A stretch of DNA of 64,000 nt from contig BAAIJX010000005.1 of the NCBI GenBank assembly GCA_054600435.1, positions 62,001 to 126,000 on the forward strand, in the 5' to 3' direction. Below are positions 26,937 to 40,403 of this stretch, piece after piece. A model generated the notes under the pieces. The model did no database searches. It worked only from the letters and a program-made list of their open reading frames with translations, and had not been told where the DNA came from. Source of the stretch: Neophaeotheca triangularis (Eukaryota). The translations under genes and the position numbers were made by a program. The first letter of the stretch is position 1; the number at the start of each line of letters is the position of its first letter.

Positions 26937-28145
26937 TCAGTATCCAGCCCCGCCCTCATACTGCAACACTTGCTCACGAAGGCGCGCAGCATCCGCAACG
27001 GCGTCGGCAAGCTGAACCGTGAAATCCGCCTTCTGATCATCCAGCCGATCCATGAGCCCCGAAACCATCTTGCCACGCAGCATCTTCTCCTTCTCCCGAC
27101 TACCCTTCAGTTCCGCCTTCGTCTTGCCCTCAATCGCAGCCAGCTTCGTCTTTGCATCTGTCTCCACCTCGACAATTTCCTCTTGAAGTTTCTTGTTCTT
27201 CCTCTCTAGAGTCCTGTTCGCCTCCTCGAGAGCTGCAATTTTCTCCTCCGACTCATCCTGAATAGCAGCCAGCTTCGTCTTCGCCTCTCTCTCCATCTCG
27301 GCGATGTCTTCCTGAAGCTTCTCGGTCTCCTCCTCGAGAGTCGTGTTTGCCTCCTTCAGAGCTGCGATGTTCTCCTTTGCCTCGTACTCCACGACAGACT
27401 TCTCCGCCTTGAGAATGTCCAGCTCGTGATACTTCTCCTCCCGCCAGGCAGTGTTGGCATCCTTAAGCACGGCAACATCTTCCTTGAGCGCGGCGATGTT
27501 CTCCTTCGCTTTAGTTTTCACTGCGACTTTCTCGCTGAGCAGCCTGTTGGCGTTGAGCAGCTTGTCAATCTCGCTACCAAGGTCGTACATCCCGCAATCC
27601 TGCCCCATCTTTGTCGATGCTGCAGAAACAAGACGGTTCCGAACTCCCGTGAGTTCTGCTTTGACGCTGGAGAGCTCCATTCTGACTGTGGTGAGTTCAT
27701 CGAGAGTCGAAACATTTCCCTCGGTCGCTTCAGGAGCAGCAAGATCCTTCTCCAAAGCATAGATTCTGCCCTCCAAGACAGCGTTGGTGTCGCGTAGTTT
27801 TGCGTTTTCTTCATTGCGTTTTCCAGGCGCATGCTTCAACCTGTAGCTGTCTGCTTCAAGCTTCGCGCAGTTTTGCTTGAGCAGATCGTTGTTTTCTTGG
27901 AGTTGGCGTCTTCCGGCACCGTGGGTGGCTTCTTCGTCCAGCGGCTCGTTGGCACCTTGCCGGACGTCGAAAGAGTCGTAGGTGGCGTCAAGGGTAGGCT
28001 GAACATCGGTAGAGGGATGGAGAGAGGCCGCAGGGGTGGTATCGTTCTCCTCGGAAGCGGCAATGTTCGCCTTTCTGGCACGCCTGCGGTCAGATTTGGT
28101 CGGACGTTTGCGCTTGTGGCCCTCCTGCTTCCCAATCTCCTCCAT
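26937..28145 (-). CDS. Orphan coiled-coil protein with three 43-aa repeats
   Basis: 402-aa E/K/L/A-rich heptad ORF with a basic NLS-like N-terminus (KRKRPTKSDRRRARK). Confidence 0.75.
   Translation of the reverse strand: MEEIGKQEGHKRKRPTKSDRRRARKANIAASEENDTTPAASLHPSTDVQPTLDATYDSFDVRQGANEPLDEEATHGAGRRQLQENNDLLKQNCAKLEADSYRLKHAPGKRNEENAKLRDTNAVLEGRIYALEKDLAAPEATEGNVSTLDELTTVRMELSSVKAELTGVRNRLVSAASTKMGQDCGMYDLGSEIDKLLNANRLLSEKVAVKTKAKENIAALKEDVAVLKDANTAWREEKYHELDILKAEKSVVEYEAKENIAALKEANTTLEEETEKLQEDIAEMEREAKTKLAAIQDESEEKIAALEEANRTLERKNKKLQEEIVEVETDAKTKLAAIEGKTKAELKGSREKEKMLRGKMVSGLMDRLDDQKADFTVQLADAVADAARLREQVLQYEGGAGY
27117..27503 (-). repeat. Three 129-nt intragenic tandem repeat units
   Basis: E(N/K)IAAL(K/E)E codons start at 27503, 27374 and 27245 (period 129); units 2 and 3 share KLQE.I.E.E..AKTKLAAI. 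Confidence 0.85.
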
Positions 28146-29880: not shown

Positions 29881-30294
29881 TCAGTCTCCGCGCTTGCTCT
29901 CCTGCTCGAGAACCTGGTCGCGGAGACGCATCGCATCCGTCCTGGCCTCCTCCAACTGGACCCTGAGCCCAGCGATGACTTCAACGTGCTCCCCGTCCTT
30001 CGCCTCCAAACCGACAATCTCCGCCTCCTGACCAGCCGTCTCCGCCCCGAGCTTCTCAAGCTGGTCTTTGAGAGCGCGGTTGTCCCAAACGAGCGAGTCT
30101 TCCTTGAAGGCTGCCTTATATGCGTCGAGCTCTTCGGTGAGCGCTTTGTTCGTGATGCGGAGAGCTTCGTTGTCGTGGTTGCGGCTGCGGACAACTTCTT
30201 CCAAACGCACAATCTGCTGTGCACGGTCCGCGTGCTGGCGTTCGAGCTTCTGGACGCGGGTCTCGTGTGGTGGGCGGCGAGCGGGTCGAGCCAT
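29881..30294 (-). CDS. Short orphan coiled-coil protein, probable paralog of 26937-28145
   Basis: 137-aa heptad ORF; VQLEEARTDAMRLRDQVLEQE aligns to VQLADAVADAARLREQVLQYE. Confidence 0.7.
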   Translation of the reverse strand: MARPARRPPHETRVQKLERQHADRAQQIVRLEEVVRSRNHDNEALRITNKALTEELDAYKAAFKEDSLVWDNRALKDQLEKLGAETAGQEAEIVGLEAKDGEHVEVIAGLRVQLEEARTDAMRLRDQVLEQESKRGD

Positions 30295-32734: not shown

Positions 32735-33061
32735 CTAGTTCCCCGGGTCCCTAGGTTGGGGAGGCTCTACCATCCGTCCCCTGACCTTGCCAGTCCCTGG
32801 GTCCCTCGGCTGCGGCTTGCCACCTAACGTCACCATGTCGTGGTCAAGCTCTGGTGAAGCCTCGAGGAACGATCGGGATTGGAAGCTCAAGTTCATAGCG
32901 AGAGAGCTGTTCGCGCGTGAACAGCGGTGCATACCGGTGTCGCGTGGTGGAGGACCGCCTGGACGTGGTCGCTGCGGAGGCCGCCTGCCTGTGCCTGGGT
33001 CTCGTGGTTGAGGGGCCATGGCGAAGGCCTGGTCGAAGGTGGTGTAGGTTGTAACGGTCAT
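32735..33061 (-). CDS. Small Pro-rich protein with three PQPRDPG repeats
   Basis: 108-aa ORF with an alternative ATG at 33019 (GCCATGG). The peptide is identical across copies while codons differ. C/A-rich leader; possible in-frame intron 32934-32851. Confidence 0.65.
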   Translation of the reverse strand: MTVTTYTTFDQAFAMAPQPRDPGTGRRPPQRPRPGGPPPRDTGMHRCSRANSSLAMNLSFQSRSFLEASPELDHDMVTLGGKPQPRDPGTGKVRGRMVEPPQPRDPGN

Positions 33062-35205: not shown

Positions 35206-37179
35206 ATGGTTCAACTCACTTGCGCACAATGTCAAGAGGAAGGTAAGCTCGCGTGCAAAAGCTGCCTGTTGGTGCTCGTAAGTCGTGTGCCACTAAGCTA
35301 TCAGTTTTGCATCGACAAGGCGCTAATTGCAGAAGTACTGTGGCCGCAATTGCCAGGAAAAGCACTGGACTGCCCATAAGCAGGACTGCAAGTCGCCGCT
35401 TACGAAACTTAAGTGGAAGCCACAATGGGAGGTGGAAGGCCGCGCACCGCTCTTCATCGGCGGACCACCAGTGACGATCCTTGGTGAGAACAAGTACCTG
35501 TGGGGTAACATACCAGCCTACGACGTCCTGAAGCTCGACGCCAATGAGGGTGCAAACTACGCCAAAGAGCTTCGCATTCTCTTTGCCGGTAAGGAAGCCT
35601 CTGAAGGCCGCAGGATTAGGTCGATTCGTAACTGATTCCCCGCGCAGCATCCGGAGACATACGTAACGTCGTGAAGACTCTTGCTTCGGTTCCCTCTACC
35701 TTCAAAGGAAAAATGATAGTCACCATCAATGATCTCGACTTTGACCTTGTCGCTAGAAACGCCGTCCTCCTGCTCATTGCCTTCGCCGCCGAGAGCCCAG
35801 AGAAAGCGGTTGATTGCATGATACACATCTGGTATTCCGCAAGCATAGGCCAGGAACATTCGAAGCTTTTACAAGGAGTGGTTCGCGAGTGTGTTCAAGA
35901 CGTGTGCACGAAGATCGAAACCAAGCCCGCCGGGACCCTCCTGGGCAAGACCTGGGAGTTCAAAATGCAAGGCTCTTTGCGGTTGGTACTCCCGAAAGAA
36001 CAATGGTTCAAGCTGCTCAAGTACTTTGAGTGCCCAAAAGACTTGACACTATCGCGTGCGGAGGAAGCACGCAAAGCCATAACGCTCGCCCATGAGCGCA
36101 GAGACCACCGGGACCGGAGTCTGTTTGCTCAACCACCAGGCGTCAGAGTTGCCAAAGCCCGCTTCCGCGAAGATGGAATTCTCCTCCCCTTTGGTCAATC
36201 GAGGAAGCGCTTCACCCAACCCAATCCAACCCTGTTCTTCAGCCAACGGTGGCCACTCAAAGACTCAGCCGACCCTCTCGATGGCTGGAGGCATCAGGAC
36301 CTGCAAAATTCTTCATACGGCGCAGCTCGCAACGACATCTACGGCAGCCTATTCAATCATCTCGAGACAGCTTTATTGGCCTTCCTTGAATGTGTCAACT
36401 CGCACGCCGTCCATTTTGAACTCTTCAACGTGAACGCAGAGAAACTCAACGAGCAGCTGCAAGACAGCTCATACGCACGGGTCGAGGTAGGAAACCGAAT
36501 CCCCCTCCCAGCGAAGCAAAGCAACCACACTAAAGATCAATGTCAGGTTTCGAACATCTCAGACCTGTGGTGTCTCGGCCCAGGAAAAACGGCAGCATGC
36601 CTCGGGCGCTTCCTACAGAGCCCAGACTTGAATCCACACGCTACTCTTATCACGCTCTTCATGAACGCAGTAGCGGAGACGTCGACGATGCTAGACCGAC
36701 TAACGGCTGAGAAGACTGAGAGGGTCAAAGTTCTCGAGTATATGCCCCCAATATCATCTTCGGGAACGCTCTTCGGGGCCCAAGAGTTGATGAACGATAT
36801 GGCGAGGGACCTGGTCCGTGACAATGACAAGTATTTTGACCGGTAAGCGTAAATACTTCTCCAGAACAGTGGAATTAAATCATTGACGCAGCCTAGGTTC
36901 ATGGAACGACATGGTTTCAAAGACATTGAACGAAACATGGGCATCGTCATCAAAGATTGCCACACCATCATCGGCAAATGGCCCATGAGGCTCCAAAGGC
37001 AACCCCACCAGCAAGGTGCGGTGGCGGAGTTCAGAGGCCTGCTCGCTTCCGCGCATACCGGTGCGGAACGTTACGTCGAGTGGAGGAAAGCATGGAACTG
37101 GAAGCAGCATCTTCCCCATGCAATTGCCGTCATGACAAAAGCTGAAGGGAACGCTGCGGAGACACGAGCAAAGAAGTAA
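35206..37179 (+). CDS. MYND zinc-finger plus DUF4470 protein (exons 35206-35277, 35333 or 35336-35588, 35648-36486, 36547-36842, 36897-37179)
   Basis: Spliced product reads CAQC..ACKSC..YCGRNCQEKHW..HKQDC (MYND), then YLWGNIPA, LFAASGDIRNVVKT, VARNAVLLL, IHIWYSA and VSNISD. All four introns are GT-AG. Confidence 0.88.
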
Positions 37180-37238: not shown

Positions 37239-40200
37239 TCAGGCATTCTTACGCCTCTTCTGGTCATGATCTTCCTCATCATCCTCCATCTCCTCGTCCT
37301 CTTCCTCAGTCTCATCCTCGCTCTCAGTCTCATCCCCCTCATCCTCCCCATCCGGACTCTCCAATCCATAATCATCCTGGAAAGAATCCAAAGCCCTAAC
37401 CTCAATCTCGAAGCCCTCTTCCCTGAACCTCCGCTCCAACCCCTCCCTCATAAGCGTGCTACATGTGACCATCAAGTTCGCCGACTCGGGCCTGAGCGCA
37501 GGGACCATATACTTAGCCATGACATCCCTGACCTGCTGCGGGCCGACATCGCGAATATTGGGCAGCATCTGATGATTCCAGTCCTTGGCGATAGCTCTCA
37601 AGACTTGATTGGAGTAGCTGAGAGCCGCGGCGCTAGCCATGGTCGGCTGCTCGTTGGCCATGTTGAGGACGATTTCGCTGACGGCGCCCTCGAGGGCGAA
37701 TTTGTTCAGTTCGAGACGGCCAGAGGCGTAGCCCTCGACTTGCTCGCGAGAGGCCAGGTAGGCTTTGAAAGCGTCCGGGCTGCGGCTGATGCTGTACGAG
37801 AGCTTGCCGATGTCGAGCGCTTTGGCCCAGGACATGCCGTAGGCGAGCCCGGAGCCGCGGACTGCTACCCACAAGGGACCTTCGACGGCGTCCATGTAGC
37901 TTTGGGCCACGAGAAGGGCGGGAAGGTCAGGGTGGTCGTGAGAGCTCGGGCCTTGACCCGTGAAGATTGCGAATGAGGAGTCAATGGTGGCCATGGGGAT
38001 GATGTAGGCGGCTGAGCCTGGGTTGCGGCCGATGGCGCTCATGGCATTTTTGCGGCTGTCGAGGGGGGTGAGGGCCGCGGTTGGTTGGTCGTGCGTGAGT
38101 TGATTCCAGGCCGAGACTGGGTTGGGAAGTTTGTGCATGTCGGCTGCGACGAAGATTCGGAAGTTTTCTGGGCGGTGCAGGGCGTTGCAGAGTTTGGCAA
38201 AGCTGTCTAGAACGGCTTTCTCGTCTGTCTTGAGGAGTTTGCGCAGGCGCCGGAGGTAGAGGGCTTTTGATAGGGTCGTGCGTGCTCTGATGCTGGACCT
38301 GCGGTCAAAGTCTACCATGTAGCCTGCTGCGTAGGCCATCGAGTGTCCGTCGCGCTTTTCGTCCGCGATGTCGGCTATGAGTTTGGTGAGCGAGGCTTGC
38401 AGGCGGACGGGATCATGTATAGCATCGTAAAGCATGGTGCGTAGCCAGCTAATGACTTTATCGTAGCTCTCGGGTTCAGTCTCGATGCTCAGAGACAATA
38501 GCTCAGAGTTGCCCCGAGCTGAACCAATGTCATAGTTGATCGTCTCTTGCTCGAAAGCAAGTACGACGTCCTCGAACTCCAAACGCCTGCCCTCGCGCAT
38601 CACAGGGCTTGTGAAAAAGTTCATCATGTATAGAGACAGGAGCGGCTTCAATTCATCGGGCAAAGCGCCAGTGCACATTTGCAGCTTGATGCGAGCGAAG
38701 TTGGAAGTGATGTTCTCGAAGTGTAAGAACAGAGGCGAGTCAGCGTCATCTTTGTCGACGATCTTTTGAATACCATTGTCCAGCTTGCCCATCTGCTTTG
38801 CAGTACCCGCCCGGGCACTGGTGGTCGTGATGAATTTGATCGACTCTGTCTCCGGGATGGGAAACTGCTCGAGTACTTCGTCAGGAATCGGCTTGTCGTT
38901 CTCTTCTTTGGCTGCGTTCAGCTTCTCTGCAAGCTTCTTGAAACCTTCCTCACCCAGACGATCTTGCTGGGCTTTAACTCTCTCCTTGTCGTCCTTCTCG
39001 AGCTTCTCCTGAAACTTAGCAGACGGTACGCCGAGAACAGAGACGTGAGGTGCATCCGATAGCCACTTCGACATGAAATCCCTCCAGTCTTTGTCCGTCC
39101 ACTGAAACAAGCTGTCCAAGTCTGCCAAAGTTTCCAAAGGCTTGAGGTCCCGGCCATCTCGTTTACCGAAGAGGTGGTCCGTAATGACAGGCTGCGCCAC
39201 TGCGTCTCCTCCGTCTTCGCTGGTCAGAATCACTCGTCGTCGGTTTCGTTTGATACAGTCGTTCATGTAGCTCATGTCAAGCTCCTTGCTAGCAGTCTCG
39301 CTGAGCAAGTCGATAACCCTTTTCTCCACAGTCTCCAGCTGCTCTGTCTCCACTGCGGTCAATTGAAACCAGATCAGTGTCTCCGTCTTGAAATCGGTAG
39401 TGTAAACGATGTCGCTGCACAGCTGCTCCTTCTCCACCAGGGTGTTGTCAAGAATACAAATCGAGGAACCGCAGAGGTAAGCAAGCAAGACCATGAGCGC
39501 AGCGTTGCCTATGTGATCGTCGTACTTGGGACCGAAGTAACCCAGCAGAATCTCGCCCATCGACTCGTCTTGCTCGGGGAACTCGACTCTCTCAACAATG
39601 CTCTGCTTCAGCGGAGGCGTCGGTTTCGAGTCCACCCAAGGCCGCCTAAATGGCTCGTCGATCTTTGGTACATCGTCGATAATCGAGTCCTCAAAGCGAT
39701 CCAGAAGCTGCAGCAACTCCGGCTGATCGACTTTTCCAGTCAACACAAGACACAGATTCTTCGGCTGGTACATCTCCTTGTGAAAAGCGCGAATGCGATC
39801 AGCGCTCAGGACCCGCAAATGCTCCATCTTACCACCGGTCTCATATCTGTACCCGCTTCCTTCGGGGTAGAGCAGACGCCTAGCGGCCAGATCCATCAGC
39901 TCGGTCGAGTCATTCTGCACCCCTTGCATCTCCGAGTACACGACGCCTGTATCGTGGCCGGTGGGATCGACATGGTGCACTTCCGTGTAGCAAGCCGCGT
40001 CTGTGAGCGTAGGTACGATGAGATGCTCCAAATAGACAGGCAAAATCTGCTTGAAACCCGCCCACCCGGCCGTCTCAAGGGTGTAACCCGTCTGCTCGGT
40101 CATGGTCCAGGCGTTGGTCATACTGAAAGCTCTCGCGGCGAGTTTGTCCAATAAACCCTTGTAGTGGTAAGTCTTGGAGCCCATGAAGACGAGATGCTCA

Positions 40201-40403
40201 AGCGTGTGCGGTGCGCCAGAGTCATCGTGGATCTCGGTCGCGAGCATGAAGAAGCCGCAGACTTTGGGGCTCTCGTGGTCCACGACGGCCACGCGCATGC
40301 CGGTTCTGGTGGATTCATATTGGGTCAGTCCCACAGGTGCGTAGTCGAGGTTTAATTCTTGCACGGTTTTGAAGTGAGTCGACGCTCCGTTGGTGCCGTT
40401 CAT
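37239..40403 (-). CDS. M16 (pitrilysin/PreP-like) zinc metallopeptidase, YOL098C/SDD3-like subfamily
   Basis: Inverted zinc motif GAPHTLEH, NAWT, GVVYSEMQG, YRYETGG, GPLWVAVRGSGLAYG and an acidic tail. First ATG is 40403 (40433 is GTG). Confidence 0.92.
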   Translation of the reverse strand: MNGTNGASTHFKTVQELNLDYAPVGLTQYESTRTGMRVAVVDHESPKVCGFFMLATEIHDDSGAPHTLEHLVFMGSKTYHYKGLLDKLAARAFSMTNAWTMTEQTGYTLETAGWAGFKQILPVYLEHLIVPTLTDAACYTEVHHVDPTGHDTGVVYSEMQGVQNDSTELMDLAARRLLYPEGSGYRYETGGKMEHLRVLSADRIRAFHKEMYQPKNLCLVLTGKVDQPELLQLLDRFEDSIIDDVPKIDEPFRRPWVDSKPTPPLKQSIVERVEFPEQDESMGEILLGYFGPKYDDHIGNAALMVLLAYLCGSSICILDNTLVEKEQLCSDIVYTTDFKTETLIWFQLTAVETEQLETVEKRVIDLLSETASKELDMSYMNDCIKRNRRRVILTSEDGGDAVAQPVITDHLFGKRDGRDLKPLETLADLDSLFQWTDKDWRDFMSKWLSDAPHVSVLGVPSAKFQEKLEKDDKERVKAQQDRLGEEGFKKLAEKLNAAKEENDKPIPDEVLEQFPIPETESIKFITTTSARAGTAKQMGKLDNGIQKIVDKDDADSPLFLHFENITSNFARIKLQMCTGALPDELKPLLSLYMMNFFTSPVMREGRRLEFEDVVLAFEQETINYDIGSARGNSELLSLSIETEPESYDKVISWLRTMLYDAIHDPVRLQASLTKLIADIADEKRDGHSMAYAAGYMVDFDRRSSIRARTTLSKALYLRRLRKLLKTDEKAVLDSFAKLCNALHRPENFRIFVAADMHKLPNPVSAWNQLTHDQPTAALTPLDSRKNAMSAIGRNPGSAAYIIPMATIDSSFAIFTGQGPSSHDHPDLPALLVAQSYMDAVEGPLWVAVRGSGLAYGMSWAKALDIGKLSYSISRSPDAFKAYLASREQVEGYASGRLELNKFALEGAVSEIVLNMANEQPTMASAAALSYSNQVLRAIAKDWNHQMLPNIRDVGPQQVRDVMAKYMVPALRPESANLMVTCSTLMREGLERRFREEGFEIEVRALDSFQDDYGLESPDGEDEGDETESEDETEEEDEEMEDDEEDHDQKRRKNA

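Follow-up and report, generated by a model that had tools for sequence, protein, structure and literature searches.

A lineage-restricted family of fungal microproteins with repeated PxPRDPG motifs and a possible multivalent docking role

The window, the whole stretch of 64,000 nucleotides that was analysed, carries on its minus strand an open reading frame of 108 codons (32735..33061), in which the second in-frame Met is codon 15. It encodes a 108-aa repeat-motif microprotein, P0001, whose repeats all lie on the same strand and are, in the order of translation, core 1 (PQPRDPG followed by TGRR, 32993..33013), core 2 (the variant PPPRDTG, 32933..32953), core 3 (PQPRDPG followed by TGK, 32795..32815) and a terminal PQPRDPG core (32741..32761) that stands one residue ahead of the stop, as in most relatives. 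A PxRPRP element (32960..32977), the position of which is kept across the family, precedes core 2, and core 2 itself corresponds in alignment to the second core of relatives, which is of the RDDG/RDGD type. Between cores 2 and 3 lies a long spacer (32816..32932) that encloses a candidate intron and was judged coding. The three PQPRDPG cores had been reported, with their codons, in a reading made from the sequence alone, and coordinates and sequence agree exactly with that report. Pairwise, the three cores differ at 6, 6 and 4 of 21 bases, and all differences are synonymous. A degenerate search pattern for PQPRDPG matched the 25.4-Mb genome three times, about 0.12 matches being expected genome-wide by chance; because all three lie in this one frame and the reversed control gave 0 matches, they cannot be attributed to chance. 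The synonymous-only differences between the cores, together with the conservation of cores over spacers in relatives (see below), show that this is a coding gene under selection at the peptide level, as had been proposed. The window copy is presumably expressed.

An intron had been suggested at 32934-32851. A donor (GTATGC) is indeed present, but there is no branch-like site ahead of the acceptor, and conservation of the enclosed sequence is seen at the protein level: the spacer 32816-32932 is similar to the spacer of P0002, with a score that was reached by 23 of 5000 shuffles, and the G-M-H-R word holding the donor at 32934 aligns with the family-wide G-x-x-R behind the second core. The stretch is thus probably coding, and the sole branch-supported alternative, 32934-32824, which is in frame, may be used as a minor splice form. 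A different intron, located in the last Gly codon or just past the stop, was predicted in 19 of 19 loci (L038 was dropped as cut off). The spliced product is predicted to end one residue past that Gly in 15 of the 19; it ends two residues past in L088, in L062 and L070 the script chose a weaker donor and the unspliced frame ends one residue past, and L016 is the remaining locus without an assigned end after predicted splicing. The stop-proximal intron was noted in L005, L010, L024, L027, L049, L059, L062, L064 and L070, measuring about 97-112 nt in most, and a 13-nt word before its branch site is shared in two locus groups. A snoRNA hosted by this intron was considered and rejected after 0 Rfam matches in 9 loci. 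Unlike its paralogs, the window copy has neither a TATA-like box nor a clear stop-proximal intron, a lone donor-like word being found 54 nt on. In two aligned locus groups the region upstream of the gene contains, as read by eye, frame-breaking indels behind a TATA-like box, so the long N-terminal extensions predicted there are 5'UTR. Promoters in two locus groups (L010, L024, L081, L027, L062 and L070) share a conserved TGA(A/T)TCA palindrome along with GC-rich boxes, a conservation that does not extend to the window or L016. A Crz1-like or otherwise shared promoter motif was rejected as not significant, 18% of control windows scoring as well.

The gene is not single-copy in this genome, as at least three more copies lie on the same contig (C5), a lower bound since 100 of 224 matches were listed; five single matches that were checked had one motif each. 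The paralogs are P0094 (C5 472626-472841, minus strand, locus L090), P0093 with three PWPRDP motifs (489500-489790, minus strand, L089) and P0095 with two (334953-335192, plus strand, L105). In each, a TATA-like box precedes the gene by about 140 nt and a splice donor falls at the stop or directly past it, and two of them have tails of 5-7 residues. The at least four copies in the genome thus come in two motif flavours, PQPRD and PWPRD, and P0001 and the three paralogs have net charges of +2 to +8. Another record, P0098, is 96% identical to P0093, from which it follows that a close relative of this genome is present in public assemblies.

Upstream of P0001, at a distance of 4.2 kb, is a gene for an M16 zinc peptidase (37239..40403, minus strand); the enzyme has an intact HxxEH motif, and among solved structures PreP and falcilysin are nearest to it. 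In all six loci where the upstream sequence extends for 4 kb or more, an ortholog was found upstream; two of these loci are near-identical, so that about three lineages are represented. The site syntenic with the metagenome loci, marked by S13, cyclophilin, DEAD helicase and an unnamed gene, is occupied by the paralog P0094; here M16 is not at that site but beside the window copy, about 370 kb away. Directly upstream of P0094, at the relatives' M16 position, there is an Argonaute gene (L100:4489-8014, minus strand; C5 ~474.5-478.0 kb). In L027 and L059 the M16 gene is inverted and about 6.7 kb away. The link between M16 and P0001 is weakened by this inversion, by the one rearrangement and by the equal conservation of other neighbours, and the linkage may be ordinary microsynteny plus one rearrangement. 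The scanned neighbours were mostly housekeeping genes, and no tailoring-enzyme family recurred among them. No Pfam match to DUF3328 was obtained in the open frames selected near the four copies of this genome or in five metagenome loci, where short exons could escape. The possibility that the gene is a uORF of ATP11, or syntenic with it, was discarded, ATP11 being found in 0 of 21 loci, five of them with 4-8 kb of downstream sequence. Between M16 and P0001 lies a DUF4470 gene (35713-36846, plus strand) with no tblastn match in related loci; judging from this, it is probably an insertion. Elsewhere in the window two coiled-coil frames (26937-28145 and 29881-30294, both minus strand) had no Pfam family above cut-off; their C-terminal ends look alike by eye and the longer one has an internal repeat, which suggests a local duplication.

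Relatives were collected stepwise. P0001 alone as query returned three, and a profile of these four sequences returned 57 proteins at E<=10 (best 8000 candidates scored). A 22-sequence profile searched against 1.84 billion representatives gave 60 matches at E<=0.001, all of 73-224 aa and thus with no sign of fusion to larger proteins, and a final profile including the divergent paralogs added only 4 further records. Named fungal hosts are Zasmidium, Hortaea, Oleoguttula, Extremus, Salinomyces, Acrodontium, Friedmanniomyces, Baudoinia, Elasticomyces, Teratosphaeria, Rachicladosporium and Polychaeton; the six that were looked up belong to Mycosphaerellales, Cladosporiales and Capnodiales. Many matches carry no species name, so this host range is a lower bound, and one record labelled Quercus suber presumably represents fungal contamination. 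All members are annotated as 'hypothetical'. Pfam had no match for P0001 or the three paralogs, and with 38 family members it gave only three stray single-member matches (E 0.04-0.15), none to a stress-protein family. No match was found among PDB sequences or viral contigs; the ESM Atlas yielded nothing usable by features, and its structure matches, obtained from a low-confidence model, all had TM<0.5. In the literature searched, mostly outside subscription papers, PQPRDPG was not found, shorter motifs gave irrelevant matches only, and neither six locus tags nor descriptive terms led to a description. The sequence-only reading had not recognised the family, and the searches of Pfam, PDB and literature bear this out. 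As far as searched, the family is lineage-restricted and undescribed.

The anatomy of the family was derived from 58 non-redundant members, reduced from 97 with at least two cores among 99 proteins. The core, P-x-P-R-D-[PDG]-G, is present 2-7 times per protein, and at least three times in 56 of the 58. The consensus is [DPGE]-P74-Q68/N/W-P-R-D93-[P58/D20/G12]-G80-[N/S/T]-G35-R53 (numbers are percentages), in which P-R-[DE] was fixed by the search pattern itself. Internal cores are thus followed by a semi-constant G-R, with Gly in 35% at position 9 and Arg in 53% at position 10. Spacers vary from 0 to 61 aa with a median of 15. The cores are not interchangeable: the second is of the RDDG/RDGD type and stands behind PxRPRP(xKP), the penultimate is often RDGG, the last one ends the protein, and these positional variants are retained across orders. 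In 28 of 58 proteins a single residue follows the last core, and many of the longer tails are likely to be gene calls running into an intron. AlphaFold gave P0001 a pTM of 0.16 and a mean pLDDT of 62, and the Atlas model of the relative P0005 had a pTM of 0.25; P0001 is accordingly predicted to be intrinsically disordered, without a fold.

For estimating selection, a pattern scan of metagenomes yielded 84 loci, 20 of which had at least two cores in one frame, the rest being set aside as truncated or as chance matches. Ten pairs were chosen from 14 loci; in these the cores showed pN 0-0.052 against pS 0.32-0.99, and the spacers pN 0.07-0.50 against pS 0.29-0.63; the pairs are non-independent and the comparison is partly circular, as the loci were found by the core pattern and the cores masked by it. 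For the window copy the comparison is internal only, core against core. Forty PQPRDPG copies are encoded by 35 distinct DNA strings. Taken at the level of sequence, these data show strong purifying selection on the cores in relatives.

The interpretation that we prefer, to which we would give somewhat less than an even chance, is that P0001 acts as an intact, disordered intracellular microprotein presenting one linear motif several times to a putative partner. The motif, [DPGE]-P-[QNW]-P-R-D-[PDG]-G-[NST]-G-R, would be displayed in 2-7 copies on flexible spacers together with one PxRPRPxKP element, and the copies would bind a peptide-recognition surface of the partner multivalently, the protein serving as adaptor, decoy or inhibitor. 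The protein is presumably intracellular, its function would be binding, and the motif may adopt a PPII-plus-turn shape. We favour this docking role because the cores are conserved islands in free spacers, vary by position, share no cleavage signal and are accompanied by SH3-ligand-like words; position-specific variants, in particular, are more readily explained by a single chain whose sites differ by position than by the release of identical peptides. The class-I-like word +xxPxxP occurs in 47 of 58 members (28.3 in shuffles), RxxKP, which is missing in P0001, in 30 (6.1 in shuffles) and the PxRPRP element in 28 (0.8 in shuffles), although the shuffles overstate these enrichments, which are inherited by kinship. 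We take +xxPxxP and RxxKP to be SH3 consensus motifs. The core itself, P-x-P-R-D-x-G, matches none of the binding motifs testable here. Speaking against docking, a chain that ends one residue past its last core also has the look of a polyprotein precursor, and P0001 is without the TATA-like box and the distinct stop-proximal intron of its paralogs. The sequence-only reading had left the choice between a docking peptide and a precursor; of these the former fits better, and both remain proposals.

A precursor could be secreted or not. That the gene encodes a secreted, Kex2-processed and amidated repeat protein of the KEP, dikaritin or pheromone type, with its signal peptide on an upstream exon, is suggested by the multi-core layout, by GRR and GK after two P0001 cores and by a hydrophobic stretch in the first 35 aa of 12 of 92 records. 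However, all 12 are long upstream extensions, those looked up (two were left out) have no species name, and the upstream region is 5'UTR in two locus groups. No hydrophobic segment was seen in P0001, in agreement with the earlier statement that a signal peptide is lacking: within its first 35 aa the highest 9-residue hydropathy is 0.58, a proxy and not SignalP, and by the same proxy 0 of 25 named records reach 1.8 at the N-terminus. The analogy drawn before with Kex2 and amidation sites was not supported either, dibasic sites being present in 82 of 201 spacers against 93.5 in shuffled ones; every spacer has one in only 5 of the 58 members, and in P0001 it is 1 of 3 spacers. Precursors of amidated peptides would have a peptide-Gly-basic site on every copy, besides an amidating enzyme; here Gly stands at position 9 in 35% of cores, and the additional Gly required for amidation is missing from the terminal one. 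DUF3328 (UstYa), expected in dikaritin clusters, gave no match. A C-terminal CaaX marks a-factor-type pheromones and was found in 0 of 58 members, so this type was rejected. A pheromone locus was likewise rejected, there being no CaaX, no signal-like segment and no flanking-gene match to the portion of PMC10569646 consulted. The core string was not found in those supplementary files of PMC7329392 that were searched, either. Taken together, secretion and Kex2 processing are highly improbable. The main rival to docking, rather doubtful but not to be dismissed as easily, is a non-secreted precursor, in which cytosolic proteolysis of the spacers, maybe by M16C, and exopeptidase trimming halted at X-Pro would yield PxPRDPG(N/T) peptides; these short peptides, linear or modified, would act as signals or inhibitors. 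A terminal core that ends the protein, the semi-constant G-R after internal cores, the variable copy number, the paralogs in two flavours and the recurrent M16 ortholog are in its favour. Against it, there is neither a constant N-terminal boundary nor a common cleavage motif around the cores of the 58 members, the cores differ by position, two paralogs have tails of 5-7 residues, and no tailoring enzyme recurs among the scanned neighbours; S13, cyclophilin, DEAD helicase and the unnamed gene are as syntenic as M16, which is itself inverted in L027 and L059. The broader proposition, an ascomycete class of signal-peptide-less multi-core precursors in three dothideomycete orders, with cytosolic processing, perhaps by the linked M16C, and with paralog-specific signals as products, appears unlikely.

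Two further explanations were considered. The cores could be eIF5A-dependent pauses, or the Pro/Arg chain could bind the ribosome exit tunnel, so that the gene would sense or tune translation. DPG or DDG is present in 170 of 259 cores, and positions 5-7 consist of D, P and G only in 209 of 259; the last core abuts the stop codon, and PRP occurs in 38 of 58 members. D, P and G, however, are also ordinary turn formers, and proline-rich antimicrobial peptide precursors, which the tunnel-binding version resembles, are secreted. The consulted parts of 10.1101/2021.02.23.432471 and PMC7104864 name both DPG and DDG as tripeptides that depend on eIF5A. Regulation in cis, as by a uORF, would call for a conserved main frame downstream on the same transcript; none was found, since ATP11 is absent from the 21 loci and a convergent S13 comes next in L010, L016 and L027. 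A role in translation is on this evidence quite unlikely. Similarly, we regard it as distinctly improbable that P0001 is a generic hydrophilic protein of the Con-6/hydrophilin kind, induced under stress or in spores, whose repeats would work physically, in protection or condensates, without one specific partner. Its small size, hydrophilicity and disorder would fit, as would the TATA-like boxes upstream of three paralogs, and many named hosts are, we assume, stress-tolerant black fungi, but the near-invariant core residues argue for specific recognition, none of 38 members matches a Pfam stress-protein family and the candidate promoter motif was not significant.

Whichever explanation applies, the locus belongs to an unnamed, deeply conserved microprotein family with a sharply defined linear motif, present in fungi that include black extremotolerant and plant-associated species. 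The specificity of PxPRDPG makes it suitable for direct testing by pull-down, peptidomics and knockout. If the docking role is correct, a new motif-domain pair would result; a cytosolic precursor would mean a new fungal peptide class and a peptide pathway outside the Kex2 and POP routes, with a dedicated substrate for a poorly known peptidase.

Among known systems, MSDIN/POPB precursors are processed in the cytosol. As described in the part of PMC6514808 consulted, they resemble the present family in being very small Pro-containing precursor genes in multigene families, but have a single hypervariable core, flanked by Pro, with a conserved leader before it and a conserved follower behind, and belong to toxic mushrooms. 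In the P0001 family it is the repeat itself that is conserved, and the neighbours gave no prolyl oligopeptidase match; membership was rejected on account of the different architecture. With KEPs, dikaritin (ustiloxin) precursors and alpha-type pheromones, as treated in the consulted parts of PMC7329392 and PMC6514808, the family shares small fungal proteins with repeats conserved at the protein level and a last repeat at the C-terminus. KEPs are defined, in the consulted part of PMC7329392, by an ER signal peptide and at least three tandem repeats of at least 8 aa, each between Kex2 sites KR/KK/RK/RR. P0001 has repeats of this kind (three exact 7-mers with conserved flanks, by direct count rather than by the paper's own algorithm), but no signal-like segment, no Kex2-bounded repeats and no DUF3328 neighbour, and its repeats are position-specific. 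It is thus built like a KEP or dikaritin precursor without being a member. Surveys of fungal repeat precursors begin from signal peptides, according to the same part of PMC7329392, and for that reason the family is invisible to them. Apidaecin-type multi-copy precursors have similar Pro/Arg-rich repeats with PQPR and PRP words, but are secreted animal precursors with clear processing sites, whereas the P0001 family has an invariant acidic residue after PR and no signal-like segment. Close to the preferred docking role are disordered tandem-motif proteins such as SH3 ligands, and yeast Vps27 with its PSDP motifs is an example of tandem short linear motifs in a disordered protein. Disorder and conserved short motifs in variable spacers, the features by which multivalent linear-motif proteins are recognised, are both found here, as are Pro/Arg-rich multivalent motifs and class-I-like and RxxKP matches; unlike those proteins, the P0001-type protein is little more than its motifs.
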